Source of the DNA: a virus
Direction: 5' to 3' (one strand)
Length of the DNA stretch: 64,000 bases
IMG/VR virus record: IMGVR_UViG_3300045988_119787
Coordinates: 1 to 64,000 of that record
Numbering within the stretch: the stretch's first letter is position 1; every line of letters starts with the position of its first letter. Under the pieces are notes generated by a model. That model was not told where the DNA came from, did no database searches, and saw only the letters and a program-made list of their open reading frames with translations. Made by a program: the position numbers and the translations under genes. Below, in pieces: positions 289 to 53,785 of the stretch.

Positions 289-1425
289 ATGGCTAGTATT
301 AATTTAAGCTTCGTTCACAATCGGTTGAAAAGAGGAACGTCACAGAAGCCAGTTTCCATCGAATTGCGGTTCAGTTACAAATATGAACGCAAGTACATTT
401 CAACCGGCATCAAGGTCACTCCAAACCAATGGTCTGACAAGTTGCAACGCATCATCAAGCACAAGGATGCTGCTGTACTCAACGAGCGGCTGGAAGCCTT
501 TGAGGAGCGTGGTCGCATCGTATTGAACAAAATGTTGAAGGAAGGTATCACGGATTTGTCTCTGATTCCTGCGCTTTTTAATGGCGAGCAAGACAAGAAC
601 ATTTCATTCATTGACTACTGCAAGAAGAGAATGAATGAACGCAAGGTGCATGATCATACCAAGAAGCGCTACGCTGTGTTTATCAGATTTCTGAAGGGCT
701 GGGGTAAGATTATCTCGTTCAGCGACTGTAATGTGCCTAAGGTGCGTGCCATGGATGAGTATCTTCACCGTCAAGGAAAGGCGCAGTGCACCATCTACGA
801 CTATCACAAGTATCTAAAGTTATTCATCAATGATGCGATGATAGACGGACTTATTGAGAAGAATCCTTATAAGTTTCTTCCGTTCCACATCGGCAAGGGT
901 GAAAAGCAGTATGTAGACTGCTGCACCGAAGAGCAGTTCGATGAAATCAAGAAGCTTGACCTTTCCACTCCTCACTTGCAGGCGACAAGAGATTTGTTTC
1001 TCTTCCAATGCTACACCGGACTGGCTTACTCTGACCTTGCTTCATTCGATTACGCCAACTGTGTTGAGAAGGATGGCAAGATGTTCTATCATGCCAAGCG
1101 CACAAAGACAGATACTGATTTCGTGTTCCAACTGCTTTCCCCTGCTGTAGAGATTCTAGTTAAATACGATTTCTCGCTGCCAAAGATTTCAAATCAGAAA
1201 TACAACGACTATCTCAAAGTTATCGGGCAAATGGTCGGGGTTGACCGTCTACACTCTCACATGGGGCGTGCTACGGCTGCTACGCTCTTCCTTTCAAAGG
1301 GTATGTCTATCAATATCGTGGCAAGGGTGCTCGGTCATACCACCTTGCGCCAAACCACAAGATACGCCCGAACTCTGAGCAAGGACGTACAGTCTGCCTT
1401 TGATGCGCTGGAAGGCAAGATGTAA
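289..1425 (+). CDS. int: Tyrosine recombinase / phage integrase (378 aa)
   Basis: Arg-I context ATRDLFLFQCYTGLAYSDL. C-terminal HMGRATAAT...LGHTTLRQTTRYAR gives the H-x-x-R, G-H and catalytic Y. The N-terminal arm-binding/SAM-like region is typical of Bacteroidota integrases. Confidence 0.9.
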   Translation: MASINLSFVHNRLKRGTSQKPVSIELRFSYKYERKYISTGIKVTPNQWSDKLQRIIKHKDAAVLNERLEAFEERGRIVLNKMLKEGITDLSLIPALFNGEQDKNISFIDYCKKRMNERKVHDHTKKRYAVFIRFLKGWGKIISFSDCNVPKVRAMDEYLHRQGKAQCTIYDYHKYLKLFINDAMIDGLIEKNPYKFLPFHIGKGEKQYVDCCTEEQFDEIKKLDLSTPHLQATRDLFLFQCYTGLAYSDLASFDYANCVEKDGKMFYHAKRTKTDTDFVFQLLSPAVEILVKYDFSLPKISNQKYNDYLKVIGQMVGVDRLHSHMGRATAATLFLSKGMSINIVARVLGHTTLRQTTRYARTLSKDVQSAFDALEGKM

Positions 1426-18000: not shown

Positions 18001-21000
18001 TGAAGACTTGGGCGAAGAGGCTGTTAAGGCTTATCACGAACTGGAAAAGAAGATTGAGCAGACAAGTACCGGTCTTTCACTCTCCCCTATAGATGTTATC
18101 AAGAACGAGCTGCAGAAGGCAGGTTATAAGGTTGGCGAGCTGACAGGAAGACAGACCGAGTTTGTTTATAACGACAACGGAACAGTTACCAAGGTAAAGC
18201 GTGCTGATACCGACAAGAAGAAACTCGCACGCGACTTTAACGATGGTAAGATTGATGCGCTTATCCTCAACAAGAGTGCTGCAACCGGTATTTCCCTTCA
18301 TGCTTCGAGCAAGTATAAGGACCAGAAGAAGCGTGTGATGATCGTGGCGCAGCAGCAGCTTGACGTGAATGACGAGGTTCAGATGCGTGGACGTATCGAC
18401 CGAACCGGTCAGGTGGCTAGAGGTGCATACGAGTATGTGGTTTCCCTTATCCCTGCCGAGCAGCGACTGCTGATGATGTTTAAGGCTAAGTTGAAGTCAC
18501 TTGATGCCAACACGACTTCTTCTCAGAAGAGTAAGTTCAACGAAATGGAAGTTGCCGATATTACCAATAAATATGGTGACAAGGTGGTTAAGGAATACAT
18601 GGCAGAGCATCTTGACCTTTATGCACGCATGGCTGATCCATTCGGATGGGAAAAGACTTACGGTGATGATTTGAGTAGAATCAACCCACAAAACCTTGTT
18701 GTCAGTGGTGGAGGTGTCGGTGATGGTGAAGCTGGTGCCGATGCAAGCAAGTTGCTTGGACGTATGGCTTTGCTGAGAGTAAACGAGCAGGAGAAGATGT
18801 TGCAGGAGATTGGCGAGCTTTACGCCAACGAGATTCAGCGACTCAACGAAATGGGCGAGAACGATTTGGAGATTACCGAGCTGCCACTGAAGGCTAAGAC
18901 TATCCACAAGGAAGTATGGAAGCAGGGCGCTGAGCCGGGCGGCGATAACGCCTTTGCCGACAACACCTATATAGAAAAGGTGAACATGGCTATCTTGAAG
19001 AAACCGATGAAGGCTTCTGAGGTGAAAGCTTCGCAGGAAGGCTTGACTGGCGGCAAGACTTGGGATGAATACAAAACCGAAAAGAAGACTGCCGTGAAGG
19101 AATACTTCGGCCAGAAGATTGCGAACGAGACTCAGAGGTATGAGGAGCGTGCGGTGAAGGCTGCAACCAAGGCAAAAGAGAAGTATATCAAGGATGGAAA
19201 GAAGGGTCAGGAGAAATCGGGCATGACCGATGAGCAGATAGAAAAGAATGCTGAATATCAGTACGAGACTATCTACAAGCAGGAGAAGGATAAGCTGGAT
19301 GATGTAGTGAAGAACTTGAAGGAGAAGGCAGAAATGTTTGACCGTGTTCTTGACACCTTCGACACCAACCAGACTTTCGTTCTGCCTACGGACATGAACA
19401 ATCCTAACGAGTTGAGCGGATTCGGCAACAGCTACGGTAGACTGATTGACATCAAGATTACTGATAACTTCTCGCCTAACGCCTCTTCTGTTTCCTTTGC
19501 AACCTTGGATGGCAGAAGAAAGATTACCTTCCCTATCGCTGGCAAGGTTGGTGCAGGTGAAAACAAGGCAGACATTATCGGCGCCATCGACAACATGACT
19601 AAGCAGGCAATCGGTATGGGAGACAGCCATCTCAGAGTATTGAACCAAAACTTTGATAACTGGGATAGACTGACTAGCAATGAGAGCCGCAAGAATGGCT
19701 ATATCGTGACCGGTAATCTGATGCAGGCTTTGGTTGACAGTAAAGATCAGGGCTTGGGCGGTCAGTTGGTGAAATATACTACTGATACTGGCGAGGTGAA
19801 GACTGGTATCTTGATGCCAGACAGATTCGACCCTAAGGGCTTGACAACGGATGCGCCTATCAACAGCGTGACAGAGAAGTTTGAGCTTTCATCATGGCAT
19901 GGTGGTATTGACGAGGTTACTTCATCGGATGGTGAAGTAAAGGTGAAGCGCATAGACAACAATCGTGGCTACTTCTACGAGCTTCGTGTACCGAAGAGCA
20001 AGGCGAAGGGCGGCAAGTACTTCATGGATGAAGATTTGCTGAAACTGGTTAATGGCAATAACTTCGAGACCAGAGGCAACAATATGCTTGCTGAGTTTAA
20101 GCCAGAGCAGTTGAAGCCAGTACTGGACCGCCTGTCTAAAATGGGCGTGAAGGTGCAGGAGGAGCGCAAAACTTCTGAGGATGAAGGCACCCACTTCCGT
20201 GAGGACCGAGGCTTGCAGTATTCTAAAACAGATACAAAAGATGTTAAGAAAGGTAGAATCATTCCCGAAGATGTAGATAAAAATGTATCTTCGCAGATTG
20301 AAAAGAAGTTTGATTCTACCATTAAGGACATCGAAGAGCATACAGAAGACAGAGATAAATCTTTGTTTGCTGATAATCTTGAATCTGCTCTGGATGAGTT
20401 TTCTGATCTTGGTAGAAGCGTTATTGAATATTACAAGAATGATTATGAACGAAAAGTTGAAAAGTTATCAGGACAGCATACCGGAGGACATCTTGGTGGT
20501 AAGAATGACGGTAAGGGAAATAAAGGCTCTTATCTACTGCAATATTATAAGACCGTTCTCGCCGTCGCTGACAGAGAACTTGCCTATAGAGACGCTAGAG
20601 CAAAGAATCTCAGAGAGACTTGGGGATTGCAGCCAGGAGGAGCGTTCACACTTGGAGCCGTTGAACGAATTTTTAAAGAAACAAATAGAGATAAAGGAAA
20701 GGCTGAACTCTTCCAAAGAGTTCTCGATATAAACAAGCGTCTTGGTGTAAACATCAAGGTAAGTGCCGAGAGTCCGAAGAAGAGATCTGGAGAAGCAGAC
20801 ACCAATAGAAACATTGATTTGTATATTGATGGTCTGACAAAAACAATGGCTCCAGACTACGCTGCCCCTACTATTATGCTGCATGAAATGATTCATGAGG
20901 TAACAATGGGTGCTATCAATCTCGTTAAGAAAGGTAAGGCTGAGGGCATACTGACCCCTAAGCAGATAGAGGGCGTAAAGACTATCCTCAAAATCTATGA

Positions 21001-24000
21001 CAAGGTAAAGGACGATAAGGAACGCTTCAAAGAAGAGCCTTACGGTCTGACTGATGCTTACGAGTTGACTGCTCAGATGGCAGATTCTAGACAGAGAAAG
21101 GCGATGGACTTGTCTATCTGGGATAGAGTTATGAATGCAGCACACGAATTTGCAAGAAGGGGCGATCGCTCTATCTTGCAGAGAGTGAAGGATGCCATCA
21201 AGAAACTGTTTGAGGTTTCTGACAAGGATAAGATGGATAAGGCTATCAACGACATCATGGATGATTTCAATGAAACCATTGATGATATTTCCATGAATGA
21301 GATTGAACAGGATGGATTCGCCTACAAGGTTACAGACAAGGATGAGCTGGACCGCCTCAACAAGGAAAAGACTTTCAGAATGTATAGCGGAATGCAGGAG
21401 GTGGACGGAAAGTTGTACTCCCCTATGGCTGCGATCATTGACGGAAAGCGTACCGATGCTACCGAGATTGGCGCTTGGATGGGCGCAGACGAGCGACCTG
21501 ACCTTGTGAAGAACGGAAAGTTTACACTTGTGAAGACTGATAAGAATAAGGGTGTTGGCGAGGGTGATGTGCCTGCTGCCTACAATCCTTATATGCACAC
21601 CTCCACTTCTATGATGAACGACCAGTTTACCGGTGCTTACGCTAGAGGCAACATCAAGGTTGTGGAATGGGAGATTCCTGAAAGCGAGAAGACCAGTGGC
21701 TATCGTGCTGAGGGTGCAAAGGATGCTGTGGGTCTTGTACCTTGGCATTCGGGTTCGGTTAATAGTTTGCTGCCGAAGGACAGACAGAGACAGGTGATGT
21801 TGTCACGCTGGAGAAAGGCGGTGAGAGTGGTTCCTGATTCAGAGGTGGCTGAGAGTATCGCAGAACAGTTGAAGGGTACAGGCTTGGCTATCCCTTGGAA
21901 TGTGGTTACTCCTAATCAGGTTAGGGAGTTGGCTAAGCTGGGCGTACCTATCACTACCGTTGAATCGGGAAGACAGGCTCCTGAAACCAAGGAGAAGTTC
22001 TTGCAGCAGATGGCTGAACTGGAACAGGAGTTCCCTCAAGCTAAGTTCGTTAACGTGAAAATGTCAAAGGATGCCTTCAAGGTATGGGGCAAGGACGGAG
22101 GCACCAAGTTCCGCACGGACCATGGAGAAAGTAGCTACCCTACTTCATCGGTTGAGAGCCATGTGGAGAAGGTGGCTCAGAAGACTGGCGCAAAGGTGAA
22201 CATGGTTTCATCAGTTGATGAAATCACCAACAAGGCTGCTAAGGCTGCTATTGAGGAAGGTAGAAAGATTACTGGCTGGTATGACGAGAAGACTGGCGAG
22301 GTACATCTTTATATGCCTAATATCCATGACAGATATACTGCCGAGAAGACTATCTGGCATGAGGTGGTTGGTCACAAGGGAATGAGAGAGTTGTTTGGTG
22401 AAGACCGATTCAACCAGTTCCTTCGTGATGTTTGGTACGACTTGGATAAGCCTGAGAATGCCGAATTGAAGAAGCTGGTGGATGAGGAGAGAAGATACAA
22501 TCCTCTGAATATCTATGATGCCATAGAGGAAGGTATCGCCCGACTCGCCGAGGATGGCAAGGGTGAACCGGGCTTCTGGAATGGTATCAAAAACAAGGTA
22601 TCTGATTTCCTTCATGAAATCGGTTATCGTATTGCTCCTAATACTAAAGATGTGAAGTATCTGCTCTGGTTGAGCAAGAACTTGCAGAAAAATCCGAATG
22701 ACCCTTATTGGAAGCTGAGAGCCGAGGCGGTGAAATTCCGTCTCGACCATGATCGTGTGCCTGCTGTCGTGGCGCATGATGGTATGTTCTACGGAAATGA
22801 CGGTAAGGTCCGCAGTATGGAGAGCATGACCAAGAGCGAATGGAACGAGGCTACAGACGGACAGATTCACTTCCGTACTACCCCATCTGCCGGCACAGCA
22901 CTTGACAGATACCACCGTTCGCTGGATGAGCACGGCTATATGTTCACCGAGAGCTATATGGATAATATGCTTTCGTTGAAGAAGTTGATGAATGCGATTG
23001 TGCCAGATAAGAAGATTGAGGATATTGCTTCTTCGGAGAATCCTTATATACTGCAGAACACCATGCAGGGTGCGATGAGTGATGCGGCTCAGATGTTTGA
23101 GCGCAACGTAATGAAGCCGCTTGACAAGGCGATGGCTGGTGTGCTGGATGCCTTTGATGGCAAGAAGGATGATGAGAAGATTAGAAACTTCAATCTCTAC
23201 ATGATTACCAAGCATGGTTTGGAGCGAAACAGAGTGTTCTTTGTTCGTGACTTCCTTAGACAGATGAGAATGTACGAGAAGAAGAAGCAGGATGCAGACA
23301 TCTTGGAGAACCGCTGGAGTAACGAGAAGGAACGTCTGGATAACGAACTGAATGCTGGTAACATCGACCTGAAGGAGTACTACAGACAGATAGACGAGTT
23401 TATCAACAACGAAATCGACCCAGACTATAAGGCTGGCGAACACGACTATTCGGGTATTCACGCTATACAAGAGGTAGCAAAGTCTTCTGACCCATACGAT
23501 GATGCAGAGGCTATCGCTAGCGTGATGGATTCGGAAGCTAAGATGGAGAGCATCAAGAAGGGAGCTGTGAAGGACTATTGGGATAAGGTGAAGGCTGCAA
23601 CCCAGTATTCGATTGACAGCGACTACAAGAATGGTATCATCAGCAAGGAGTTGCACGGTCATGTATCTAATATGTTCAACTGGTATGTGCCTTTGAGAAA
23701 GTATGATGAGGCTACTGCAGAAGATACTTATGGCTACATTACTGAGCAGGGAGACCCGAAGAGTTACATCGGAAGCACCATCATGAGAGCAAGAGGACAC
23801 AAATATCTGAGTGAGACAAATGTGCTGGCGCAGATTGGTGCGATGGGTAACAGAGCTATCAAGAACGGCGGTATGAATGCTATCCGTCAGGCTTTCGCAA
23901 GATTCGCGCGAAATAATTCGGGCAATAATCTGATTACAGAAACGAGTGTATGGTATGAGAAGGACCCAATGACCGGTATTGTTTATGAGCGCTATCCTGA

Positions 24001-31548: not shown

Positions 31549-34500
31549 TTATGATAATGAATTAATTAAATTATCAACCAAAGGAAGTCGCTCCTCTAAC
31601 CATTTCTTTACACGATATATGCTATCATAATGTCCAAGATAGAATGGTCTTTCTGAATAGTATTTTGTTACAGGAGACACGTTGGTGCAATCCTTAATAA
31701 CCTTAAATGCAAGATGCTCGAATACTACATAACTACCAGCAGTATAAGTTGTATCTTTATTCCATACCTTCTGACCAGAAGCTGTGATTCCTGCATCAGT
31801 ATATGTACATGGGGTATAGTATTCTGTGTTTATGTTACTATCCCTATGACAAGGAGATTGCTTCCATCTATCATACTCCTGCTTAAAATCATCTGTTCCA
31901 ATTCTAGAACACCAATCAGTAAGAAGGTTAATGATGTTGTCAGCAGTAAGTATAGCCTTTCTGAGTTCAGAATATCTTTTCTTCAACTCTGTTGCAAAAT
32001 ACTTATATACCCAATATGTTCCACCATATCCCTTTTTGTTTCCCATCAAGCTGATTGGCTCCATAAAATTATCTTTTGGTGAGAAGCTGAAAGTGCCATC
32101 AAAGAAATCTCCAAACACACCATCTAGGTCATAAGGATATACACCAAATCTTACTCCATTCCAAGAACCAATTTGCCAATTCTTACCAAATCCATCATAG
32201 TTAGCTATAACGTTTGAGAAACAAAGATAATCAATAATGCCATCTACATCATATCTGTTATCAATTTCATTCTTTATATCATCTTTGGTCTTGCTGCCAG
32301 CTTCTATTTGTGCTTCTACTTCAGTAAGTTCTGTATCATATTTACTTAGGGCAATGATATACTTTTTTACTTGAAATGATAGTTCCATATTCTTATTGGA
32401 AGCATCATAACTTTCAGATGTATCATCTATAAGCTCCTGCACTTTGTTTTTGTCTGCATCATATTTACTACCATCCATACAGATAAGAGACTTAGGGTTT
32501 CTTATCTCAAATCCCTGCTCACTCATCGGATTCCATGCAGTACTTGGCAATGTACCATTTGCAGAAAATAGGTTTTGTCTAATAAAACCATCCAAGTGTA
32601 TATTCTCAGCTTTATTCTTTGACATTTTCATATTGTCACGATGTTTCTTTAATTGCCAAGAAAAAACACCTAAGAACTCTCCTTCGAAATAGACTATGCA
32701 AGGAAATCCATCAGGAAAAGTTCTTGCTTCATCACCAAAGTCATAAGCAATTTCTGCATTTTGATTTATGCCATAAGATGCAGATGTGGAATCTTTATAG
32801 TATCTCTTATAAGCCCTGTCATTATGCAATCCACGACTTTTTGATATTTCATCAAACAATTTATAGCAAACAACTCCTGCACCTCTAAAGGCATCAGTAT
32901 AATATGCCTTAAAATGAAAACTGTCTTGTGATACCCAATTACCGATTTTTACTTTGCAGGTATCATCACCAATCCATTCATCATTGCATATAACTACTGC
33001 AAAATTCTTCTTTGCCAAATAGAGTGAACTACTTCCTTGCGCATTGAGAATTACACGTTTCTTAAAGTATATGCCTTCTAATGTCCATACTTCTATCCAT
33101 GCATGTAGATTCTGGGTTTTAGATGTTGGCATGTTTGATACTCCTGAAATGTTAACTATAGCCTTTCTTGGTTGATTTGGGATTCTTATATGATCATCAT
33201 TGCTCATGTCACAAGCATTGATGTTATATCCTTTACTTTTCAAATATTTAATGAAATCATTTCCGTCTTCAACATGGAGGCTGGCAACACGCATTTTTTT
33301 CTCAACCTTTGTACCATCTTTTTCACGGAAACCAAGAATTTTATCATCAGAATCAGTTATCAATTCCATGCGTTCCTCTTGGTCTTCAAAGGATTTTTTT
33401 GAATTTGCTACATCTTCATTGATAAGTGTTTTACCTACCTCCTTATTAACCTTTGTATCAAACGTTTCTGATTTCAAGTCATACACATAATGGCTTCCAT
33501 CATTGTATGTAGCAGAAAGAATCCTTCCGTCTGCATCTTTCTCTACTGCAAGGTACTCAGGATTCTCCTGCAAAGAGAAAATATCAAGAAGTTCTTGTAG
33601 ATTGGTATCTATTGTACCTACCTTCTCCTGCAATGATGCAAGGTCTGATTGAAGCTGAGAGATAACTTTCTTCAAGGCATTGACTGCATGAATCTCACCA
33701 ATGACCTCTCCGTCTCTTCTAAGACCAAGTAATACTTTATCGTCAGTAGTAACCCAAGCAGCAAAGTATTCTTCGCTCTGAATGACGTGATACATTTCAT
33801 TAAGAGGATAATATGGCTTGCCAGTTGCTCTGTAGAAGCCAAACAGTACCTTATCATCTGAATCCACTATAGCTTTGAGAAATTCTTCATTCTCAATTAT
33901 TCTAAAGCACTCTTTTACTTCATCTTCAATGAGTGATTTGCCTTCTTCCTTGTCAACCTTTGTATCTTGAAGATTCTTGATGTCCTCTCCAAACTTAGTA
34001 TTGAGACTATTGAGGTTTGCAAGAATGCTTGTAAGGGTCTGCGTATTCTCAATCTCAGCAAAGAACTTCTTCAACTCATTCATGGTATCAATGACATTTG
34101 TTGTGTCCTCATCACCCATGATGGTTGCTACTCTCTCTGCAAGAAGAGTTACTTGTGACTGCAATCTGTCCTCTACAGCACTTGTCTTACCAAATACTGG
34201 AGTGGCATCCCATTGGATACCAAAGAGAAGCTTGTCCTCTGCGTCCACCTTGGCAAAGATGAACTCTTCATTCTGAATGTAGCGGAAAGGAGTTTCTACT
34301 ACAGTTCCTTCCTCATCCTTGATAGCTACTTTATCTACTACTTCCTGCATTGTGCCAAGAGTCTGCTCTGTCTGCTCTCTAGAATCATCAGCCTTCTGGG
34401 CTGCTTCATTGGCTTTTAATGTAGCTTCTTCTGCCTTGGTTGTGGCAGCTTTAGCTTGCTCTGTAGCCTGAGCAGATGCTGTTGTTGCATTGGTTGCTAA

Positions 34501-34821
34501 CTGGGTAGCATTGTCAGCCGCTTCCTTTGCTGCTGTGGCTGCTGCTGTAGCTTGCTTTGCATTTTCTGTAGCTTGATCAGCTTTGGCGGTAGCTTCTTTT
34601 GCCTTCTCGGTTGCCTCATTTGATGCAGTTACAGAATTATTTATCTCTTGCCGGATAGACGGGGCAAGCTTTTGGGCTGTAACCGCACCGTCAGCCAACT
34701 TCTCGGAAGTAATATTGCCGTCACGAATCTTGTCTTTTGTAACAGATTGGTCATTATAATCATCTGTTTTCATCATTGGCACCATACCACCTATTTTTGT
34801 ATCTTGTCTAAATGTAGGCAT
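31549..34821 (-). CDS. Tail fibre protein (1,090 aa) with an Ala/Thr/Lys coiled coil, five ~30-aa repeats, a CotH-kinase-like domain and a CBM5/12-like C-terminal module
   Basis: The N-terminal repeats DGNITSEKLADGAVTAQKLA are typical of phage fibres. CotH-like strings: QGSSSLYLAKKNF, FPCIVYFEGEFLGVFSWQLKK, ANYDGFGKNWQIGSWNGVRFGVYPYDLDGVFG. CBM-like string: VWNKDTTYTAGSYVVFEHLAFKV. Confidence 0.7.
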   Translation of the reverse strand: MPTFRQDTKIGGMVPMMKTDDYNDQSVTKDKIRDGNITSEKLADGAVTAQKLAPSIRQEINNSVTASNEATEKAKEATAKADQATENAKQATAAATAAKEAADNATQLATNATTASAQATEQAKAATTKAEEATLKANEAAQKADDSREQTEQTLGTMQEVVDKVAIKDEEGTVVETPFRYIQNEEFIFAKVDAEDKLLFGIQWDATPVFGKTSAVEDRLQSQVTLLAERVATIMGDEDTTNVIDTMNELKKFFAEIENTQTLTSILANLNSLNTKFGEDIKNLQDTKVDKEEGKSLIEDEVKECFRIIENEEFLKAIVDSDDKVLFGFYRATGKPYYPLNEMYHVIQSEEYFAAWVTTDDKVLLGLRRDGEVIGEIHAVNALKKVISQLQSDLASLQEKVGTIDTNLQELLDIFSLQENPEYLAVEKDADGRILSATYNDGSHYVYDLKSETFDTKVNKEVGKTLINEDVANSKKSFEDQEERMELITDSDDKILGFREKDGTKVEKKMRVASLHVEDGNDFIKYLKSKGYNINACDMSNDDHIRIPNQPRKAIVNISGVSNMPTSKTQNLHAWIEVWTLEGIYFKKRVILNAQGSSSLYLAKKNFAVVICNDEWIGDDTCKVKIGNWVSQDSFHFKAYYTDAFRGAGVVCYKLFDEISKSRGLHNDRAYKRYYKDSTSASYGINQNAEIAYDFGDEARTFPDGFPCIVYFEGEFLGVFSWQLKKHRDNMKMSKNKAENIHLDGFIRQNLFSANGTLPSTAWNPMSEQGFEIRNPKSLICMDGSKYDADKNKVQELIDDTSESYDASNKNMELSFQVKKYIIALSKYDTELTEVEAQIEAGSKTKDDIKNEIDNRYDVDGIIDYLCFSNVIANYDGFGKNWQIGSWNGVRFGVYPYDLDGVFGDFFDGTFSFSPKDNFMEPISLMGNKKGYGGTYWVYKYFATELKKRYSELRKAILTADNIINLLTDWCSRIGTDDFKQEYDRWKQSPCHRDSNINTEYYTPCTYTDAGITASGQKVWNKDTTYTAGSYVVFEHLAFKVIKDCTNVSPVTKYYSERPFYLGHYDSIYRVKKWLEERLPLVDNLINSLS

Positions 34822-41106: not shown

Positions 41107-43125
41107 ATGGCAAAGGCAAAGTTATTAACACTTAGTAGAGTGATGCCTCGGCATAACAAATATGATTCGGTCAAGGCTCGAAAGCGGAGACAGGAGCACG
41201 GCAAGGACTGGGAGCTTCTTACCCGATGTAAGAACGACTGGAATAACCTGAGTGGCGTAAGGGAGACGAGAGCAAGAACCATGAGATACTGTAACGGTGA
41301 ACAATGGAGCGACACCATCAGAGTTTATCATCGTGGCTATTGGGAAGAAATGTCTGAGAAAACCTATATGCAGAAGCGAAATCAGACACCAATGAGCAAC
41401 AACATCATGATAAGTATCTTGGAATCTATTGCCGGTCTCTACGCCAAGCAGGGCACGGAACCCGTCTGCTTTGCAAGAGATAATGACTCCCGACAACTGA
41501 GCGACATGATGAGTGCTACGATGCAATGCAACTGGCAGACCACCGGCATGCAGGATTTACTGAATCACCTTATCAAGGATTATCTGCAGGGCGGTCAGAT
41601 GTTCGTGAGGGAAAGCTGGGAAGACCGAGAACTTGAAATGCCCGATGCTTGGACGGACGCAATGGAACCGGACCACATGTTCTTTGAGTGCGGAAGCGAC
41701 CCAAGACACAATGACGTTTGTCTGATAGGTTGTCTGCATGACGTAAGCAAGGAAGACCTGTATCAGAAGTTTGCCAGAAGGGAATACGGACTGACGGTTG
41801 ATGATCTGAATAGGATTTTTGACATTCATGATGTAGACGATAGCAGTTATGGCTACGAGTTCAACGAGGAAAAGGCTTTGGACAATCTCAGCTTCGATTA
41901 CACCAACAAGGGCAGACACTACGTAAGAGTGATTGAGGTATGGAGTACGGAAACCAAGCCTAGACTGCAATGCTTCGACCCTATTGCCAAGAACATGAAC
42001 AACGCTTGGTTCCGTGTGGATTTGGAAGACACGGCTATGATAAACAAGCTGATTCAGGAAAACGAGAAGCGCAAGAAGCAGTATGATGAATACGGTGTGC
42101 CGGAAGAAGACCGTGCCTACATCACATCGGAAGATCTTTCTGATAAATACTGGTACTATACCTTCATGGCTCCTGACGGTACGGTCCTCTGTCGTGGCGA
42201 ATCTCCTTACGATTTCAAGAGTCACCCATACACCATGAAGCTTTATCCGTTCATCAACGGAGAGATTCATCCTTTCATGACCAACGTGATAGACCAGCAG
42301 CGCTACATCAACCGCCTGATCGTGATGAACGACATGAGTATCAGAAGCAGCTTCAAGGGATTCAAGATGATTCCTACAACCGTACTGGGTGGAAGAACAC
42401 CAGAGCAGTTCATGGAAGAGGCAATAGAATACGATGGATGGATATTCTACACACCAAAGAGAACGATGCCGAACGTGAAGCCAGAGATTATCACTTCGAA
42501 TGCGGTAAACATCGGAACAAACGAACTCTTGCAGATAGAGCTGAACCTTATCAGAGAGGTGACCAACGTGAGCGGTGCCTTGCAGGGCAAGACTCCTTCG
42601 GCTGGTACATCGGCTGCAAGATATGCACAGGAGAGTCAGAACGCAACCACTTCGCTCTACACCATCCTATCCGATATGGAGATTTTTACGGAGAAGCTGG
42701 CAATGAAAAAGTGCTCAGTTATCCAACAGTTCTACGAGGACGGAAGAAAGATTTTCAACAAGGACGGTCTGAACACCTACAGCTATGACAGGCTATCAGC
42801 AAGAGACATTCATTTCAAGATAAGCATCAAGAATGCAGCTGCATCTGCTGCCTTCAACACTTTGCAGAATGACGACTTGAAGGAGTTGCTGCAGATGGGT
42901 GCAATCAACCTGATTCAGTACTTGCAGAATGTAAACAAGCCTTATGCAGACAAGTTGCTTGCCAGCGTGCAGGAACAGCAGGCGCAGCTGGAACAGATGT
43001 ATCAGCAACAACAGGCGATGGCTCAACAGCAAGGAGGCGGTCAGGTAGTAAATGGCGTGGTACAGGGTGCAGACCAGAACGCAGTGGCACAAGCTATGAA
43101 TTTGTATAACAATCAAGCAGCATAA
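41107..43125 (+). CDS. Portal protein (672 aa)
   Basis: RYCNGEQWSD and NNIMISILESIAGLYAKQGTEPVCFAR are portal-like N-terminal motifs. Size, Q-rich C-terminus and location in the head module agree. Confidence 0.7.
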   Translation: MAKAKLLTLSRVMPRHNKYDSVKARKRRQEHGKDWELLTRCKNDWNNLSGVRETRARTMRYCNGEQWSDTIRVYHRGYWEEMSEKTYMQKRNQTPMSNNIMISILESIAGLYAKQGTEPVCFARDNDSRQLSDMMSATMQCNWQTTGMQDLLNHLIKDYLQGGQMFVRESWEDRELEMPDAWTDAMEPDHMFFECGSDPRHNDVCLIGCLHDVSKEDLYQKFARREYGLTVDDLNRIFDIHDVDDSSYGYEFNEEKALDNLSFDYTNKGRHYVRVIEVWSTETKPRLQCFDPIAKNMNNAWFRVDLEDTAMINKLIQENEKRKKQYDEYGVPEEDRAYITSEDLSDKYWYYTFMAPDGTVLCRGESPYDFKSHPYTMKLYPFINGEIHPFMTNVIDQQRYINRLIVMNDMSIRSSFKGFKMIPTTVLGGRTPEQFMEEAIEYDGWIFYTPKRTMPNVKPEIITSNAVNIGTNELLQIELNLIREVTNVSGALQGKTPSAGTSAARYAQESQNATTSLYTILSDMEIFTEKLAMKKCSVIQQFYEDGRKIFNKDGLNTYSYDRLSARDIHFKISIKNAAASAAFNTLQNDDLKELLQMGAINLIQYLQNVNKPYADKLLASVQEQQAQLEQMYQQQQAMAQQQGGGQVVNGVVQGADQNAVAQAMNLYNNQAA

Positions 43126-45051: not shown

Positions 45052-45450
45052 ATGGAAGATTTGGAATATGACGAGTTTAAATCGGTAAGGGAATTTCAGA
45101 AGGAGAAGAAGGAAAAAGCCAAGACCATTCTTCCGGCAAGGAAGAGTGCGCAGAAAGAATATATCAGAGATTTCCTTGCAAGGAATCAGGAAAAGTTTGA
45201 AGAGTGCATGGATCAGCTGGCAGAATATGACCCTAAGACATACGTCACCATCTACAAGGACCTGACCAAACACATGATACCTAAGCAGAGTGAGGTAAGC
45301 GTGACGCATGGACTGGACGAAGACTTCAAGCAGCTGGCAGCACTGGCACAGACCAAGACAGACAACAATGCCTTGGACGTTACGCAAGTTCCGCAGATAA
45401 TGGATGCGGATTTTGAAGAAATAAAGGAGTTGGGCGATGGCATTAGTTAG
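45052..45450 (+). CDS. Candidate small terminase subunit (132 aa)
   Basis: Position only: a small charged protein whose stop overlaps the TerL start. Confidence 0.3.
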   Translation: MEDLEYDEFKSVREFQKEKKEKAKTILPARKSAQKEYIRDFLARNQEKFEECMDQLAEYDPKTYVTIYKDLTKHMIPKQSEVSVTHGLDEDFKQLAALAQTKTDNNALDVTQVPQIMDADFEEIKELGDGIS

Positions 45451-47569
45451 AGAAGTAGATATTGATGAACTCGTTGCCGAGAACAAAAGACGGTATGATG
45501 AGATTTATGGCACCTACGACCCTTGGACGGGCGAAGGGTGTTATGATTTTGAACATCGCGAACTGCTGGAACTTCCGGACTTCATGATTTCGAAGATGTG
45601 GGTCCCCAAAGAATGTATGCGTACCTTATTATATAGGGGACTGAAACAGCTGGGCAGCATGAAGGAATACATCATCAGAGTATGGGGCAAGCAGTATGAA
45701 GAGAAGAGTTATTACACCAGACAGCTTAAAATGTTGCTCACCTTCGAAATCATGAAAGTCAGATTCAGAGAAGACCCTGAATTTGCCCTTTATTCTACCG
45801 ACAAGATTGAGGATAAGGTAAGCGGTGACATGATACCTTTTAAGCTGAACTATCCTCAGCGAAAACTCTTGAAGATTTTTGAGGACTTGAGAACCGGTGG
45901 CAGGGCTATCCGTGTAGTTATCCTAAAAGCTCGACAATGGGGTGGTTCTACCCTCACCCAGCTTTACATCAAATGGTTGCAGGATTTCAGAAAGGACGGT
46001 TGGAATGCTATCGTACTTGCCCAGCAGAAGAACACAGCAAAGAAAATCAAGGCAATGTATCGAAAGGCTTTGGAGAACCAACCGGGATGGACGATTGGCA
46101 GACCGGGAGCGAAGCTTCAATTCTCTCCTTACGAGAACTCGCCAGACGATTTCCAAGTTACAGACGGAATGAGGGCAATCCGAAGAAGTACACTGACTGT
46201 GGCTTCTTTCGAGAACTTCGATTCCGTGCGAGGTAGCAACTTCCACTGCGCTCACTATTCCGAGGTTGCTTACTGGAAGAAGACTCCCGAGCATGATCCT
46301 GAGGGTGTGATTTCGTCAATATCGGGTGGTATCAGAAACCAAGAGGATAACCTAGAGGTATTCGAGAGTACCGGCAAGGGTAATTCGGGATTCTTCTATG
46401 ACAAGTGCCAGTTGGCGATGGACCCAAAGAACAATGATGCCTATTCGTTCCTGTTCATTCCTTGCTTCTTTATCGAGCATGATATGGAAGAGGTGAAGGA
46501 TGAGCGTGCCTTTGCAAGATGGCTGCTGGAGAACAGAGACAAGAGTACCAACCCGAAGGGCTACCGAGAAACAGGAAAGTTCTTCTGGCGAATGTGGGAG
46601 AAGGGTGCTTGCTTCCAAGCCATTGAGTGGTACAGAAACTTCCGCAACAAGTTTACCACCCATTCATTCTGTGCTACAGAGGCGCCAGTGGACGAAGAGG
46701 ACGCTTTCAGAAACTCAGGTAACTTGGTATTCAATCCGTACAGTATTGATGATTTGCAGAAGAAGTACAAGCGTGAACCGCTCTATACGGCAGACATCAT
46801 TGTTGACGGAAACAAGAATGACTCAACCATTGAGAAGTCGAAGGTGAGCATCAGAACAGATGGTGACGGAGACTTGAAAATTTGGGCTGTTCCTAACGTC
46901 CTGCAGGTGGAGAACAGATACTTGGTGAGCGTGGATATTGGCGGTAAGAGTACCACTTCTGACTATACCGTCATGACGGTGATAGACCGATTCGGAATGA
47001 TTCCGACCGTCAAGGGCAAACCGAAGGTAGTAGCTAGATACAGAGGTCATGTAAGACACGACAAGCTGGCGTGGATGGCTGCTGCCCTAGCCCATTACTA
47101 TGATGATGCCCTGCTGGTGATTGAGAGTAATACGGCTGACCGAGAGAAGAACAACAATACGGAAGGTGACCACTTCGGAAGCATCCTGAACGAGATTGCC
47201 GACTACTACGATAATCTTTATCAGCGAACCACAAGTCCGGAAGACGTGACCGATGATGTGCTTGCTAAGTACGGTTTCCAAACCAACAAACTGACAAAGG
47301 GATGGATAATTGACAACTTGGAGCAGTTTGTGGATGATATGCTCTGGGATGAGCCAGACAAGGAAATGTATCATGAGCTGAGAATCTATGAGCGACATGA
47401 TGATGGAAGTCTCGGCAACATCGTGGGCAACGGTAATCATGATGATGTTCTGATGAGTACGGCAATCGGTCTTTGGGTGAGTGCCAACGACATGGAGAAG
47501 CCTCAATGGAAGAAGAAAGAAAAAACAAGAAGCGGTGGTGACGGTGTGTATACTGCTGCAAAAATATAA
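45437..47569 (+). CDS. terL: Terminase large subunit (710 aa)
   Basis: Walker A-like KARQWGGST; coupling region FHCAHYSEVAYW; RNaseH-like nuclease motifs YLVSVDIGGKSTTSDYTVMTV and NHDDVLMSTAIG. Confidence 0.85.
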   Translation: MALVREVDIDELVAENKRRYDEIYGTYDPWTGEGCYDFEHRELLELPDFMISKMWVPKECMRTLLYRGLKQLGSMKEYIIRVWGKQYEEKSYYTRQLKMLLTFEIMKVRFREDPEFALYSTDKIEDKVSGDMIPFKLNYPQRKLLKIFEDLRTGGRAIRVVILKARQWGGSTLTQLYIKWLQDFRKDGWNAIVLAQQKNTAKKIKAMYRKALENQPGWTIGRPGAKLQFSPYENSPDDFQVTDGMRAIRRSTLTVASFENFDSVRGSNFHCAHYSEVAYWKKTPEHDPEGVISSISGGIRNQEDNLEVFESTGKGNSGFFYDKCQLAMDPKNNDAYSFLFIPCFFIEHDMEEVKDERAFARWLLENRDKSTNPKGYRETGKFFWRMWEKGACFQAIEWYRNFRNKFTTHSFCATEAPVDEEDAFRNSGNLVFNPYSIDDLQKKYKREPLYTADIIVDGNKNDSTIEKSKVSIRTDGDGDLKIWAVPNVLQVENRYLVSVDIGGKSTTSDYTVMTVIDRFGMIPTVKGKPKVVARYRGHVRHDKLAWMAAALAHYYDDALLVIESNTADREKNNNTEGDHFGSILNEIADYYDNLYQRTTSPEDVTDDVLAKYGFQTNKLTKGWIIDNLEQFVDDMLWDEPDKEMYHELRIYERHDDGSLGNIVGNGNHDDVLMSTAIGLWVSANDMEKPQWKKKEKTRSGGDGVYTAAKI

Positions 47570-50244: not shown

Positions 50245-50275
50245 AATTCTTTTTCCATAAGTTGATAACATAAAA

Positions 50276-50308
50276 GAAGGCGGCTACTCGTGATGAGCAG
50301 TCGCCTTC
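50276..50308. terminator. Hairpin between convergent genes
   Basis: GAAGGCG...CGCCTTC 7-bp GC stem with inner partial pairing. Confidence 0.5.
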
Positions 50309-50326: not shown

Positions 50327-50812
50327 TCAACTGAACCTATGAAACATTTTACGAAGAAATCCTATAGAATATCCTAACCAGAAGCAATATAGATGTAGAG
50401 TTCCATTGACATCATTCAACAGCATGGTAAAGAGAATGAACGGCATTGCCTTCTTGGTAGCCTCTTTCCACCTGCCGGTCTTTCCCCACATGATGCCGAG
50501 TGCGGAAAAGAGAAATCCCGACAACCCCATTGTCGGCTCTGTAACGAACATGGGCAGGAAGCTGGCTGCTACTGCTGTCACGAACGAAAGGGTTACATCT
50601 ATCTTATTCTTTATACTCCAAAGCACCATCAGATTGATGAGCAGATGGAATAAGTTGACATGAAAGAAGCTGTAGACGAAATGATTTTCAATCGGGCAAC
50701 CCTGATAGAAGCCTACGTGCTGCGTGCATAGAACCAGGCAGACAAGACTAAGAATCAGCTTGATCAGAAAGTTTCTTCTTGCGAAGGTCCATTTCCCTAT
50801 AACTCTTTCCAT
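50327..50812 (-). CDS. Rhomboid-family intramembrane serine protease (compact, 161 aa, six predicted TM helices)
   Basis: TM2 FFHVNLFHLLINL (GlpG-like H-x4-H-x3-N), TM4 MGLSGFLFSALG (GxSG catalytic Ser), TM6 TLHLYCFWLGYSIG (catalytic His, GxxxG). Confidence 0.8.
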   Translation of the reverse strand: MERVIGKWTFARRNFLIKLILSLVCLVLCTQHVGFYQGCPIENHFVYSFFHVNLFHLLINLMVLWSIKNKIDVTLSFVTAVAASFLPMFVTEPTMGLSGFLFSALGIMWGKTGRWKEATKKAMPFILFTMLLNDVNGTLHLYCFWLGYSIGFLRKMFHRFS

Positions 50813-51203
50813 ATCTTTTGCAATAATTGAAGATGAACATCATGTTCTTTGGCTTGATGAAGAATTCCGGTGCAGGCTCACTCACCAAGAACTGACAGAT
50901 GAACCAGAGCGATTTCCCAAGGAACTCTTTTTTCTGTGACATTTCCATCAGCTTATCATACAAGGAGTAATACATTCTCCTCTTGTTGGGCTTCATGTTG
51001 TCAACGGTTGAGAAATCGCCAACAACCATTTTTTCGAGCTTTCTGTACGCCTGCTTGGGAGATACATAATATCTCGGAGCTGGCGACTTCACCACCTTCT
51101 CGTATGCTTCCTGCTGCGAATGGCAGGTAGGGGCTATAGCACGATACGCCTTCATCAGGTCGTCCCTCTGTCTTTCAATCAGTTCGAAATTTGTCTTCGT
51201 CAT
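50748..51203 (-). CDS. hypothetical protein (151 aa from the ATG; the track start 51236 is a TTG)
   Basis: ORF track. -7 box 23 nt upstream of the ATG at 51203. Its 3' end overlaps the rhomboid start by 65 nt. Confidence 0.55.
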   Translation of the reverse strand: MTKTNFELIERQRDDLMKAYRAIAPTCHSQQEAYEKVVKSPAPRYYVSPKQAYRKLEKMVVGDFSTVDNMKPNKRRMYYSLYDKLMEMSQKKEFLGKSLWFICQFLVSEPAPEFFIKPKNMMFIFNYCKRYGKSYREMDLRKKKLSDQADS

Positions 51204-51225: not shown

Positions 51226-51233
51226 CAAATATA
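51226..51233 (-). promoter_or_regulatory. -7 promoter box (TATATTTG on the minus strand)
   Basis: Plus strand reads CAAATATA. Confidence 0.45.
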
Positions 51234-51325
51234 CAATTTATTTAGATTCTAACCAAATAAGCGTATAAAGATTTAAATAAGTTTAATATTAGACCGATTT
51301 TCATGGCATTACGAAAGAAAAAGCT

Positions 51326-51403: not shown

Positions 51404-51574
51404 ATGAGAACAAAACAGGAAACACCTCTCTCGGAAGAGGAGAAAGCCTTAGTTATGGAAGGCTTATTGAGTAGGAAGATTTGGAGGTTCTATGAACTTC
51501 TAGCAAAGTGGGCACCCATACTGTTGATGCTTGGCCATTGGTATGGAGTATGGGACTATGGGCGTTATCCCTAG
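51404..51574 (+). CDS. Small ORF (56 aa) below the track threshold, hydrophobic C-terminus
   Basis: Hand translation: MRTKQETPLSEEEKALVMEGLLSRKIWRFYELLAKWAPILLMLGHWYGVWDYGRYP. Confidence 0.35.
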   Translation: MRTKQETPLSEEEKALVMEGLLSRKIWRFYELLAKWAPILLMLGHWYGVWDYGRYP

Positions 51575-51890
51575 ACCTACCATCACAGATACCGACTGCA
51601 ACGGTAACTGCATCATCTGGATTTACGTGCTGTCGTATATCTATATGCCTTTATCCATGATTCCCGTGAGTTTCTTTTTCAGATACTGCTGGATTTTCCG
51701 CATCCCATTCTTCTATTTCATTGGCATCAATGCCATCAGACTGTATTACCATCACTGGCTCATCACTCCAGAGCAACTGGAAATGCACCATGTGTTCATT
51801 ATATTCACTTTAATGCTATACGCTTATGGATTTATCAAAATCGCTCTATCACGTAGCAAAATCTGCATTCCACATGCTACAAAACGATGA
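51543..51890 (+). CDS. Polytopic membrane protein (about 115 aa), overlapping both neighbours in other frames
   Basis: ORF track 51531..51890 (TTG start); ATG at 51543; several hydrophobic helices. Confidence 0.4.
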   Translation: MEYGTMGVIPRPTITDTDCNGNCIIWIYVLSYIYMPLSMIPVSFFFRYCWIFRIPFFYFIGINAIRLYYHHWLITPEQLEMHHVFIIFTLMLYAYGFIKIALSRSKICIPHATKR

Positions 51891-52356: not shown

Positions 52357-52806
52357 ATGGCTGAAATAATTCATACATTCTTGCAAGAGCACCTGTATAG
52401 GTCGGCATTGATCATTGCCATCTGTATGGGTGCTCTTATCATTTCTATGGGCGTGGACCTGTTCTTCGGCATCAAGAAAGCGAAAGAGAACGGACTGGCT
52501 ACGACAAGTACAGGATTCAAGAAGACTTGCGACAAGGCAAGGAAGTATTTTTCGCCCTTCATGGTGACGGTCTGCATAGACCTGATTGCCTGTACGGTTC
52601 TCCCCTTCCCGATTTTCTCCATGATTTGGGTTGGCTATTGCGTGTTCTGTGAATTTGTAAGTGTAAGAGAAAAGAGCTGGCAGAAGGCTGAGATACGGAA
52701 ACAAGAGAAGACGGTAAGCATTCTTCTGGAGAACAAAGAGGACCTTGCTAGGGCTTTTGCCGAGATTATGAAGGAACTGGAAAAGGAGAAGGAGGCAAAA
52801 GGATGA
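52357..52806 (+). CDS. Holin (149 aa, three TM helices)
   Basis: MGVDLFFGIKKAKENGLATTSTGFKKTCDK resembles the phage holin (Holin_4_1-type) signature. Directly precedes the endolysin. Confidence 0.7.
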   Translation: MAEIIHTFLQEHLYRSALIIAICMGALIISMGVDLFFGIKKAKENGLATTSTGFKKTCDKARKYFSPFMVTVCIDLIACTVLPFPIFSMIWVGYCVFCEFVSVREKSWQKAEIRKQEKTVSILLENKEDLARAFAEIMKELEKEKEAKG

Positions 52807-53348
52807 AGATAACTAGAAAACAAATGGTGAATGCTGTAGGAAATGTTGATAAAATTGACATTCTCCTACATTATATCAACATCTATCTTGATGTCTTTGA
52901 CATCAATACTCCTCTGAGAGCAGCACACTTTATGGCACAATGCTGTCACGAAACTGGCGGTCTGAAATTCCTGAAAGAGAAGGGCAATTCCAAGTATTTC
53001 AAGAAATATGAGCAGGGAAGACTCGGAAAGATTCTTGGCAATACTCAGACTGGAGACGGTGAGAAGTACAAGGGTCGTGGCTTGCTGCACCTTACTGGCA
53101 GAGCCAACTACAAGGCTTATCAGAAGTCTGGATATTGCAAGGGCGACATCATGGAGAATCCGGAATTGCTGGAGCAACCGATTGGTGCTATCAAGAGTGG
53201 TATGTGGTGGTGGATGAAGCATAAACTGAATGCTCTTGCCGACAAGGATGCTTTCGAGGCGATTACGAGAAGAGTGAACGGTGGAACAAACGGACTGGAA
53301 GACCGAGGAAGATGGCTAAGAATTTGGAAAAAGGAGTTATGCGCATGA
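52803..53348 (+). CDS. Endolysin, glycoside hydrolase family 19 (chitinase-like) fold (181 aa)
   Basis: AAHFMAQCCHETGG ... E ... YKGRGLLHLTGRANY. Confidence 0.85.
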   Translation: MKITRKQMVNAVGNVDKIDILLHYINIYLDVFDINTPLRAAHFMAQCCHETGGLKFLKEKGNSKYFKKYEQGRLGKILGNTQTGDGEKYKGRGLLHLTGRANYKAYQKSGYCKGDIMENPELLEQPIGAIKSGMWWWMKHKLNALADKDAFEAITRRVNGGTNGLEDRGRWLRIWKKELCA

Positions 53349-53785
53349 AATGGTATGATATTAGGTTTTGGAAATGGGCGTGTGTAGCCTTGGCTATTGG
53401 TGTTATCCTGCTAGCCTTTACTGGCTGCAAGACTAAGGAATACATCAAGATTCCAGAATATCACACGGAATACATCGTGAGAACCGACACAGTTGCCAAG
53501 ACGGATAGTATATACATGAAGGATTCTGTACATGTCTTTCAGAAGGGTGATACGGTGGTGATTAGCAAGGTTGCTTATCGGGACCGCTACCATAATATAT
53601 ATAAGGTGAAGCTTGACACTATCTTTAGGCATGATTCTATTGAGGTTCCTGTGCCATGTGAGCGGACGCTTACCAAGAGCGAGCAGAGACTCATGACGCT
53701 AGGAAGGTGCTATATAGCCTTTCTCTTCTTAGTGGTTGTTGTCGGAATTGGGTTTGCCTTCTGGTATCATAATAAAAAATGCTAG
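53339..53785 (+). CDS. Unimolecular spanin candidate: N-terminal lipoprotein signal plus C-terminal TM anchor
   Basis: Start set at MRMKWYD. Lipobox-like LLAFTGC, a beta-rich middle, and C-terminal IAFLFLVVVVGIGFAFW. Last of the holin-endolysin-spanin order. Confidence 0.55.
   Translation: MRMKWYDIRFWKWACVALAIGVILLAFTGCKTKEYIKIPEYHTEYIVRTDTVAKTDSIYMKDSVHVFQKGDTVVISKVAYRDRYHNIYKVKLDTIFRHDSIEVPVPCERTLTKSEQRLMTLGRCYIAFLFLVVVVGIGFAFWYHNKKC

Follow-up and report, generated by a model that had tools for sequence, protein, structure and literature searches.

Rhomboids are among the structurally best-understood intramembrane proteases, and few of their bacterial substrates are known. The present report concerns a putative rhomboid gene of a virus, located in the IMG/VR record IMGVR_UViG_3300045988_119787, of which positions 1 to 64,000 (64,000 nucleotides, nt; hereafter the window) were analyzed. 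The best structural match of its product, a protein of 161 amino acids (aa), was GlpG of E. coli and H. influenzae (PDB 2IC8 and 2NR9). Both proteins have a core of six transmembrane (TM) helices with N-in/C-in topology, the HxxxxHxxxN motif in TM2, a GxSG motif whose serine lies where TM4 begins, an aromatic residue four positions past this serine and a histidine in TM6 followed by a small-x3-Gly pattern. Nevertheless, GlpG comprises 276 aa, and the window protein lacks its N-terminal cytoplasmic domain, which is perhaps replaced here by a separately encoded partner protein. The window rhomboid is also phage-encoded, its gene clusters with that of the large terminase subunit (TerL), its first loop (L1) is much shorter and it has no tryptophan-arginine (WR) dipeptide.

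The preliminary description of this locus did not regard a rhomboid as a standard phage gene. Full-text literature searches yielded no functional study of a phage or prophage rhomboid. Such genes are nevertheless less unfamiliar than that description held, relatives having already been labelled automatically as rhomboid or GlpG-like in GenBank phage records (PQ571263 gp59), in UniProt entries of uncultivated phages and at JGI. Annotated members of the same clade included BF1-TP2 gp59 (PQ571263), BS-TP4 gp8, BKO1-TP3 gp50 and the UniProt entries A0A8S5TE03 and A0A8S5QAB7 (Podoviridae sp.). These relatives, of 155-172 aa, were 27-31% identical to the window protein and had identical catalytic residues. 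The three TP phages also carried the same partner gene upstream and TerL adjoining, but in them partner, rhomboid and TerL formed one operon, whereas in the window the pair was inverted and lay beyond an 887-aa gene, beside the lysis block. BKO1-TP3 gp50 was mislabelled as a glycoside hydrolase; the homologues of the other two isolated phages were labelled as rhomboids.

Functional precedents exist among cellular enzymes. AarA of Providencia stuartii reportedly activates TatA by removing its N-terminal extension, and YqgP (GluP) of B. subtilis uses an N-terminal cytosolic domain for regulation. Both are said to make a single cut that activates or removes an N-out single-pass or polytopic inner-membrane protein, and the YqgP domain is analogous to the role proposed below for the partner. 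Unlike the window rhomboid, these enzymes possess additional TM helices or domains, and the parallel would concern function alone; nothing resembling TatA or MgtE was identified as a substrate of the phage protease. Rhombosortases are likewise small bacterial rhomboid-family proteases (about 150-190 aa), and their model TIGR03902 gave a weak match, far below its threshold (12.9 bits against a cut-off of 84); they differ in acting on GlyGly-CTERM proteins in Proteobacteria, and there was no evidence of such substrates here. The GlpG equivalog models NF008155 and TIGR04239 of NCBIfam were matched at 12.9-13.2 bits, against cut-offs of 335 and 250. Virus-encoded rhomboid folds were also found with Foldseek against BFVD in giant viruses (Megaviridae, Yasminevirus and the Aureococcus anophagefferens virus), but these proteins are much larger (207-394 aa), belong to eukaryotic viruses, matched with weak structural E-values (0.01-0.1) and have an unrelated genomic context.

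The rhomboid gene and the sites proposed to form its catalytic apparatus were located as follows.

50327..50812, minus strand: mini-rhomboid coding sequence with an ATG start, 161 aa, six predicted TM helices, N-in/C-in topology
50633..50662, minus strand: TM2 motif H51-x4-H56-x3-N60, counterpart of GlpG H145/H150/N154 (oxyanion-hole region)
50519..50521, minus strand: codon TCG, as read from the sequence, of Ser98, the proposed catalytic serine of the motif G96-L-S98-G99, where TM4 begins
50393..50395, minus strand: codon CAT of the proposed catalytic His140, in TM6, as read from the sequence

The open reading frame (ORF) and the three GlpG-like motifs noted in the preliminary description were all present, in the order given there. 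Residues 49-61 (FFHVNLFHLLINL) contained H51-x4-H56-x3-N60, residues 95-106 (MGLSGFLFSALG) contained G96-L-S98-G99, and residues 136-151 (NGTLHLYCFWLGYSIG) contained H140 and G147. In the HMMER alignment, H51, H56 and N60 paired with the HxxxxHxxxN of GlpG, G96-L-S98-G99 with G199-L-S201-G202, F102 with Y205 and G106 with G209. G147, seven residues past H140, corresponded to the second glycine of the GxxxG motif in TM6 of GlpG. The small-residue/Gly packing motif next to the TM6 histidine was thus found in the window protein, and the third position after the histidine was C, S, A, T or G across 127 relatives.

Membership of the rhomboid family was assessed with profiles and with structure prediction, as had been suggested when the gene was first described, and both gave a positive result. 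The Pfam family Rhomboid (PF01694; MEROPS S54) matched residues 45-141 with 25.6 bits (E 1.6e-5), above the gathering cut-off of 22.6 bits. An AlphaFold2 (AF2) model built on the family alignment (pLDDT 78, pTM 0.75) showed a GlpG-like fold with six TM helices, in agreement with the six hydrophobic segments noted earlier, plus a short N-terminal helix. Helix 4 began at residue 98, which placed Ser98 in its first turn. When this model was compared with the PDB by Foldseek, the top 37 matches were all GlpG or iRhom (TM-score 0.6-0.7, E about 1e-4) and the scores collapsed beyond them. Lysines and arginines were confined to the N-terminus, L2, L4 and the C-terminus, and none occurred in L1, L3 or L5. 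This positive-inside pattern points to the topology of GlpG, with the active site predicted on the periplasmic side. The N-terminus was short, with 14 residues preceding TM1. L1 comprised about 13 residues (31-44), against about 33 in GlpG. PHROGs contained no family that matched the rhomboid.

Furthermore, the gene was found to be widely conserved. A word-indexed search returned 60 close relatives of about 160 aa, and an exhaustive profile search of 1.84 billion representatives returned 731 clusters, 248 of them at E<=1e-10 and almost all of these 145-185 aa long. An alignment of 127 diverse relatives, 22-51% identical to the window rhomboid, was used to analyze conservation. H51, H56, G96, S98 and H140 were its sole invariant columns; N60 (126/127), G106 (116/127), G147 (112/127) and F/Y102 (112/127) were nearly so. 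Pfam Rhomboid was matched by 106 of these 127 sequences on their own, with a best E-value of 1.4e-14. All 116 unique phage copies also retained S98, H140 and G96, so that the conservation of the catalytic Ser and His in homologues, on which the preliminary description had made its proposal depend, was complete, and the TM2 H/H/N was kept as well. The reading frame was intact in 155 of the 156 related loci retrieved, the remaining one being cut by the end of its contig, and the pairwise ratio of nonsynonymous to synonymous substitution rates (dN/dS) was about 0.19, indicative of purifying selection. Together, the Pfam match, the predicted fold, the conserved catalytic residues and the presence of the gene in relatives supported the original description of a compact, phage-encoded rhomboid. 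To judge from its sequence, the ORF encodes a rhomboid-fold membrane protein with a complete, invariant set of catalytic residues.

In the profile search, no mini-rhomboid scored below 84 bits, and no cellular rhomboid (255-442 aa) scored above 63 bits. Because of this gap, the window protein is assigned on sequence grounds to a distinct clade of mini-rhomboids of about 140-200 aa, with a very short L1 and with neither a cytoplasmic domain nor the WR motif. The WR dipeptide occurred in 2 of the 127 aligned members, and a vestigial, partly conserved W41/42 ... H/R44 remained. Every context of the clade that was examined was a tailed phage of one Bacteroides/Segatella lineage, with a P22-type portal, a DUF5309 capsid protein and a giant polyvalent protein.

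Several database entries of 100 aa annotated as hypothetical proteins (P0017, P0024, P0028 and P0029) proved to be the same rhomboid called from Met62, one of these clusters occurring on 118 contigs. Such entries lose TM1 and the H/H/N motif of TM2. The overlap with the gene upstream probably makes gene callers shorten the rhomboid in this way, which leaves the mini-rhomboid family under-annotated in databases.

The gene immediately upstream had been treated as a bystander in the preliminary description. This view was not upheld; the gene was instead a conserved partner of the rhomboid, fused to it in one lineage. The partner and the signals around the pair were as follows.

50748..51203, minus strand: partner coding sequence, 151 aa, soluble, all-helical; phrog_27246, function unknown
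50748..50812, minus strand: out-of-frame overlap of 65 nt between the 3' end of the partner and the 5' end of the rhomboid
51226..51257, minus strand: promoter-like site of the Bacteroidetes type, TTTG-N20-TATATTTG, 23 nt upstream of the partner ATG, found by pattern search
50270..50308, minus strand: terminator-like hairpin GAAGGCGACUGCUC...GAGUAGCCGCCUUC followed by UUUUAU, 19 nt past the rhomboid stop

The 65-nt overlap was as first described, with the upstream stop at 50748. The start of the partner is most likely the ATG at 51203 and not the TTG at 51236 given by the ORF finder, because most partner homologues are 151 aa long. The partner lay upstream of the rhomboid, co-oriented and overlapping, in 86 of 87 close loci, and annotation confirmed it in the 87th; the overlap measured 29-68 nt in all 86 close loci where both genes were found. 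Among distant loci, it was directly upstream in 48 of 58. It was homologous across all groups, 134-151 aa long and under very strong constraint (dN/dS about 0.02). Its AF2 model (pLDDT 90.9) was all-helical. Within the protein, a unit of about 65 aa (helix, helix, PAPRF(Y/W)V(S/T)P strand, helix) was repeated in tandem, each half carrying a version of the motif. This architecture may represent an undescribed fold or domain family.

A natural fusion of the two proteins was also identified and provides the best argument for a partnership. In P0250 (292 aa), residues 1-133 were homologous to the partner (E 6e-24 against the hidden Markov model of the partner) and residues 153-285 to the rhomboid, in frame. 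The identical protein was encoded on nine Logan contigs from independent sequencing runs, with TerL immediately downstream and with scaffold-like and capsid genes divergent on the other side. This N-terminal fusion fits the cytoplasmic N-terminus predicted for the rhomboid. By analogy with the covalent domains of cellular rhomboids, the partner probably serves the protease as a cytoplasmic subunit or adaptor that is provided in trans. Programmed frameshifting was also considered as a way of making such a fusion in the window. This idea was rejected, as the frames of the two genes are not related in the same way in all clades (the overlap was 2 mod 3 or 1 mod 3) and as some relatives overlap by only 4 nt.

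Regarding the expression signals, matches to TTTG-N20-TATATTTG in the window numbered 3, against 1.9 expected by chance, so that the support for the promoter-like site comes from its position and not from statistics. The preliminary description had assigned the upstream gene an ordinary, non-late -7 box, which could not be substantiated: TAnnTTTG boxes were also found ahead of the portal and holin operons, and they did not distinguish late operons from those that look early. A sigma-70 scan is not informative for Bacteroidetes. The terminator-like hairpin was situated between the rhomboid and the convergent 887-aa gene, with a folding energy of -24.3 kcal/mol (z = -3.95) that was equalled by 1 of 200 shuffled sequences.

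The other conserved neighbour was TerL, which in the window is separated from the rhomboid by one gene and which, across the wider lineage, clustered with the rhomboid more consistently than any other gene.

45437..47569, plus strand: large terminase TerL, with PHROG terminase matches, on the strand opposite to the rhomboid

The window TerL was 35-41% identical to the TerL found immediately downstream of the rhomboid in six distant loci. In these six contexts the order was partner, rhomboid, TerL, with overlapping reading frames and divergent from the scaffold and capsid genes. In 58 further loci the three genes were still clustered but in variable order: rhomboid and TerL followed by an opposite-strand partner, TerL followed by the rhomboid, or TerL, two genes and then the rhomboid. 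The conserved neighbours of the rhomboid are therefore the partner and TerL, not the lysis cassette. The arrangement in the clade of the window, with the pair inverted, separated from TerL by the 887-aa gene and adjoining the lysis block, is derived. Hence, the position just upstream of the lysis region given in the preliminary description was correct for this window, as was the orientation opposite to the flanking operons, but a link to lysis did not hold beyond the clade of the window. As a side observation, the product annotated as a tail spike protein in PQ571263, PQ571277 and PQ571269 is likely the large terminase, since it was 35-40% identical to the window TerL and carried Terminase_6C structure notes.

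The survey of related phages and prophages that had been proposed for this gene was carried out, and the gene was present both in IMG/VR relatives and in isolated Bacteroides phages. IMG/VR contained no fewer than 130 close relatives, the longest of their contigs reaching 78 kb. A further 58 relatives that were retrieved are more distant, and the closest genomic copies of the rhomboid were found in metagenome-assembled genomes of the Segatella copri group. A megablast search of a 7-kb region against 50,697 phage records gave no match, and relatives were found by protein-level search alone. Among these 50,697 records, the temperate Bacteroides phages BF1-TP2, BS-TP4 and BKO1-TP3 were the sole isolated phages with a close TerL relative, and all three carried the rhomboid homologue. 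MW202692, the only other phage record with a distant TerL relative, had no rhomboid. When all the ORFs of the window were compared by BLASTP with all those of BF1-TP2, only about 10 genes were shared: those for the integrase, the giant protein, the capsid, scaffold-like, adaptor-like and portal proteins, TerL, the 887-aa protein, one more protein and the rhomboid. A profile search added the partner, giving about 11 in all. The rhomboid accordingly belongs to the conserved core of these phages and not to their variable accessory fraction.

From these data, a genuine, catalytically competent minimal rhomboid protease with a partner is, on the sequence evidence, the best overall explanation and a likely one. 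The two genes probably encode an active, two-subunit intramembrane protease that would be expressed late. A bicistronic partner-rhomboid mRNA would be transcribed from its own promoter, with translation coupled through the overlap. The rhomboid would insert N-in/C-in in the host inner membrane, with a Ser98-His140 dyad opening periplasmically and with H56 and N60 stabilizing the oxyanion. On the cytoplasmic face the partner would act as an adaptor or regulatory subunit, like the covalent N-terminal domains of cellular rhomboids, and the enzyme would cleave one or several single-pass membrane proteins within their TM segment, close to the periplasmic side. The fact that the gene travels with TerL and the morphogenesis core suggests that it is expressed late and serves the productive cycle (takeover of the host inner membrane, egress or an assembly-linked step) rather than lysogenic conversion. 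Our guess for the substrate, at about even chances, is a conserved host inner-membrane protein; a phage membrane protein is a somewhat less probable guess. A more ambitious proposal, which we regard as rather improbable at present, is a dedicated two-subunit protease without which a large lineage of gut Bacteroidales phages could not complete its productive cycle. On this proposal, for which the persistent clustering with TerL speaks, the enzyme would be functionally coupled to DNA packaging or morphogenesis, for example by cleaving an inner-membrane protein of the host or the phage and so permitting packaging, assembly or egress at the membrane.

Several observations weigh against the reading as a partnered, late-acting protease. 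The Pfam score of the window protein was just 3 bits over the cut-off, and direct similarity to GlpG was weak: GlpG chains alone were matched when the single sequence was searched against the PDB (E 0.04), and they alone were significant, still weakly, with a 35-sequence family profile (E 2e-3). The WR motif of L1, viewed as a hallmark of rhomboid proteases, was missing. The partner had no Pfam or NCBIfam match and no PDB match by Foldseek or by sequence profile, so that the adaptor role rests on gene linkage plus one fusion lineage, and in 5-7 of the 58 distant loci no partner was found within 5 kb. No conserved candidate substrate was found near the module among the predicted membrane proteins of the window or the small TM proteins of the distant loci. 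Late expression is read from the operon context of relatives only, and the pair in the window is separate and oppositely oriented, as is typical of morons; more generally, we infer activity, timing and substrate alike. A protein of BS-TP4 annotated as YajC-like had no hydrophobic segment.

The alternatives were examined against the gene content of the window, which is that of a temperate tailed phage or prophage.

289..1425: integrase, which marks the phage as temperate
41107..43125: P22-type portal
51404..51890, plus strand: gene of a 160-aa membrane protein, part of the membrane/lysis block, which also includes a DUF7841 protein
52357..52806, plus strand: holin-like gene (phrog_20732 / weak holin)
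52803..53348, plus strand: GH19 endolysin, following the holin-like gene
53312..53785, plus strand: u-spanin-like gene, last in the lysis cassette, with a lipoprotein-type signal (…LLAFTGC) at the N-terminus of its product and a TM helix at the C-terminus

The DUF5309-type capsid protein of the window was identified by homology to BF1-TP2 gp56. The weak Pfam score and the lack of WR, together with the many database entries that are 100-aa fragments without a Pfam match, could be taken to mean that the protein is an inactive, rhomboid-like pseudoprotease, or that the ORF is spurious and merely shadows the neighbouring genes. This is very improbable. Pseudoproteases lose their catalytic residues, whereas here the Ser, the His and the H/H/N have stayed invariant among highly diverged relatives; purifying selection acts on the gene, its predicted fold is confidently and specifically that of a rhomboid, and the short entries are the same gene called from an internal methionine. 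The missing WR dipeptide marks an atypical member of the family, whose catalytic machinery appears untouched at the sequence level. Lysis timing, the leading idea of the preliminary description, in which the rhomboid would process a holin or antiholin, a spanin or a small membrane protein, draws on the position of the pair directly beside, and divergent from, the membrane and lysis genes in the window and its clade. This adjacency was not conserved, however: in BF1-TP2 the endolysin lies about 14 kb from the rhomboid, and distant loci place the rhomboid between partner and TerL, beside capsid genes. Moreover, no lysis-side protein of the window was detectably shared with BF1-TP2, and the holin-like and membrane proteins here are unlike the typical N-out single-pass substrates of rhomboids. 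A role in lysis timing is thus considered unlikely.

No better founded, in our opinion, is the possibility that the pair is a moron, a protease expressed in the lysogen that would cleave a host inner-membrane protein for superinfection exclusion or a fitness effect. The phage is temperate, as shown by its integrase and by isolated relatives named as temperate phages, and in the window the pair forms a unit of its own, bounded by a promoter-like site and a terminator-like hairpin and running against the late operons on either side. Morons, however, are usually variable, whereas the rhomboid belongs to a small conserved core, is intact in virtually all the loci retrieved and overlaps TerL in one operon in most relatives. 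The same type of promoter box precedes the portal and holin operons, and neither the two proteins of the pair nor two of their neighbours matched any model of a known anti-phage defence system in PADLOC-DB at E<=0.1. The partner could also be the small terminase (TerS), with the rhomboid tethering or regulating the packaging machinery at the inner membrane. The partner has the size of a TerS, is helical and very strongly conserved, and, heading the partner-rhomboid-TerL operon, it stands where a TerS is classically encoded. No other TerS was recognized in the window, and the triad stays clustered despite changes of order. Nevertheless, neither Pfam, NCBIfam nor the PDB gave it a TerS family or fold match, and its PHROG is of unknown function. 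This reading was down-weighted because a different 132-aa ORF overlaps the TerL start in the clade of the window and because of the fusion P0250, which would anchor TerS to a six-TM protein, an arrangement for which we know of no precedent. The invariant catalytic residues also point to proteolysis rather than to scaffolding, and the TerS assignment is regarded as slightly less probable still than the two preceding alternatives.

Several features of this rhomboid appear not to have been described before: the clade with a minimal core, its status as a core gene in a widespread lineage of gut phages, the partner with its fusion, and the linkage to TerL. The clade may contain the smallest natural rhomboid core (140-165 aa, with almost no L1 and no WR) and could thereby help to show which functions depend on the L1 loop and on extramembrane domains. 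A partner that is separately encoded, and fused in one lineage, offers a natural experiment on cytoplasmic regulation of rhomboids. The retention of the gene in every relative examined, beside the terminase and within a core of about 11 genes, implies that a step of membrane proteolysis is important to the phage, and the identity of the substrate could reveal a new mechanism of host takeover, assembly or egress. The setting is tractable, given that BF1-TP2, BS-TP4 and BKO1-TP3 carry the module, the first of these having B. fragilis BL19 as its host, and that the lineage is abundant in the gut viromes of Segatella and Bacteroides. Should the packaging-coupled, two-subunit protease prove true, it would be the first intramembrane-proteolysis step known in the life cycle of a tailed phage and the first rhomboid with a cytoplasmic regulatory domain supplied in trans.

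Additionally, some observations were made on other genes of the window. The divergent neighbour of the pair, the membrane protein gene at 51404..51890, was split at TAT_CCC_TAG_A, where an ORF of 56 aa gives way to one of about 110 aa in the +1 frame; the shift site CCC TAG is at 51569..51574. The CCC_TAG/TAA split was present in 51 of the 64 sequences scored, the window included, and the other 13 had one in-frame ORF of 155-161 aa (...YPRPT...). A +1 slip of tRNA-Pro on CCC would restore exactly the protein of the in-frame relatives, and both halves were under purifying selection (dN/dS 0.11 and 0.14). The gene is therefore a candidate, on sequence grounds, for programmed +1 ribosomal frameshifting; in Listeria phages, +1 frameshifting at CCC_UGA has been documented (PMC5009743).

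A giant gene was also found in the left part of the window.

9038..26107, plus strand: giant polyvalent protein of 5689 aa with ddrB-ParB, Sbno-like helicase (AAA_34 + Helicase_C_4) and LPD38 domains

Counterparts of 3633-5553 aa occurred in related Bacteroides phages and metagenomic contigs, one of them annotated as DarB-like and one with LPD23 and ART-PolyVal domains. Finally, a CotH kinase domain (PF08757, E 9e-15) was detected in a 1090-aa protein of the structural region (31549..34821, minus strand); such a domain is uncommon in the tail or structural modules of phages.

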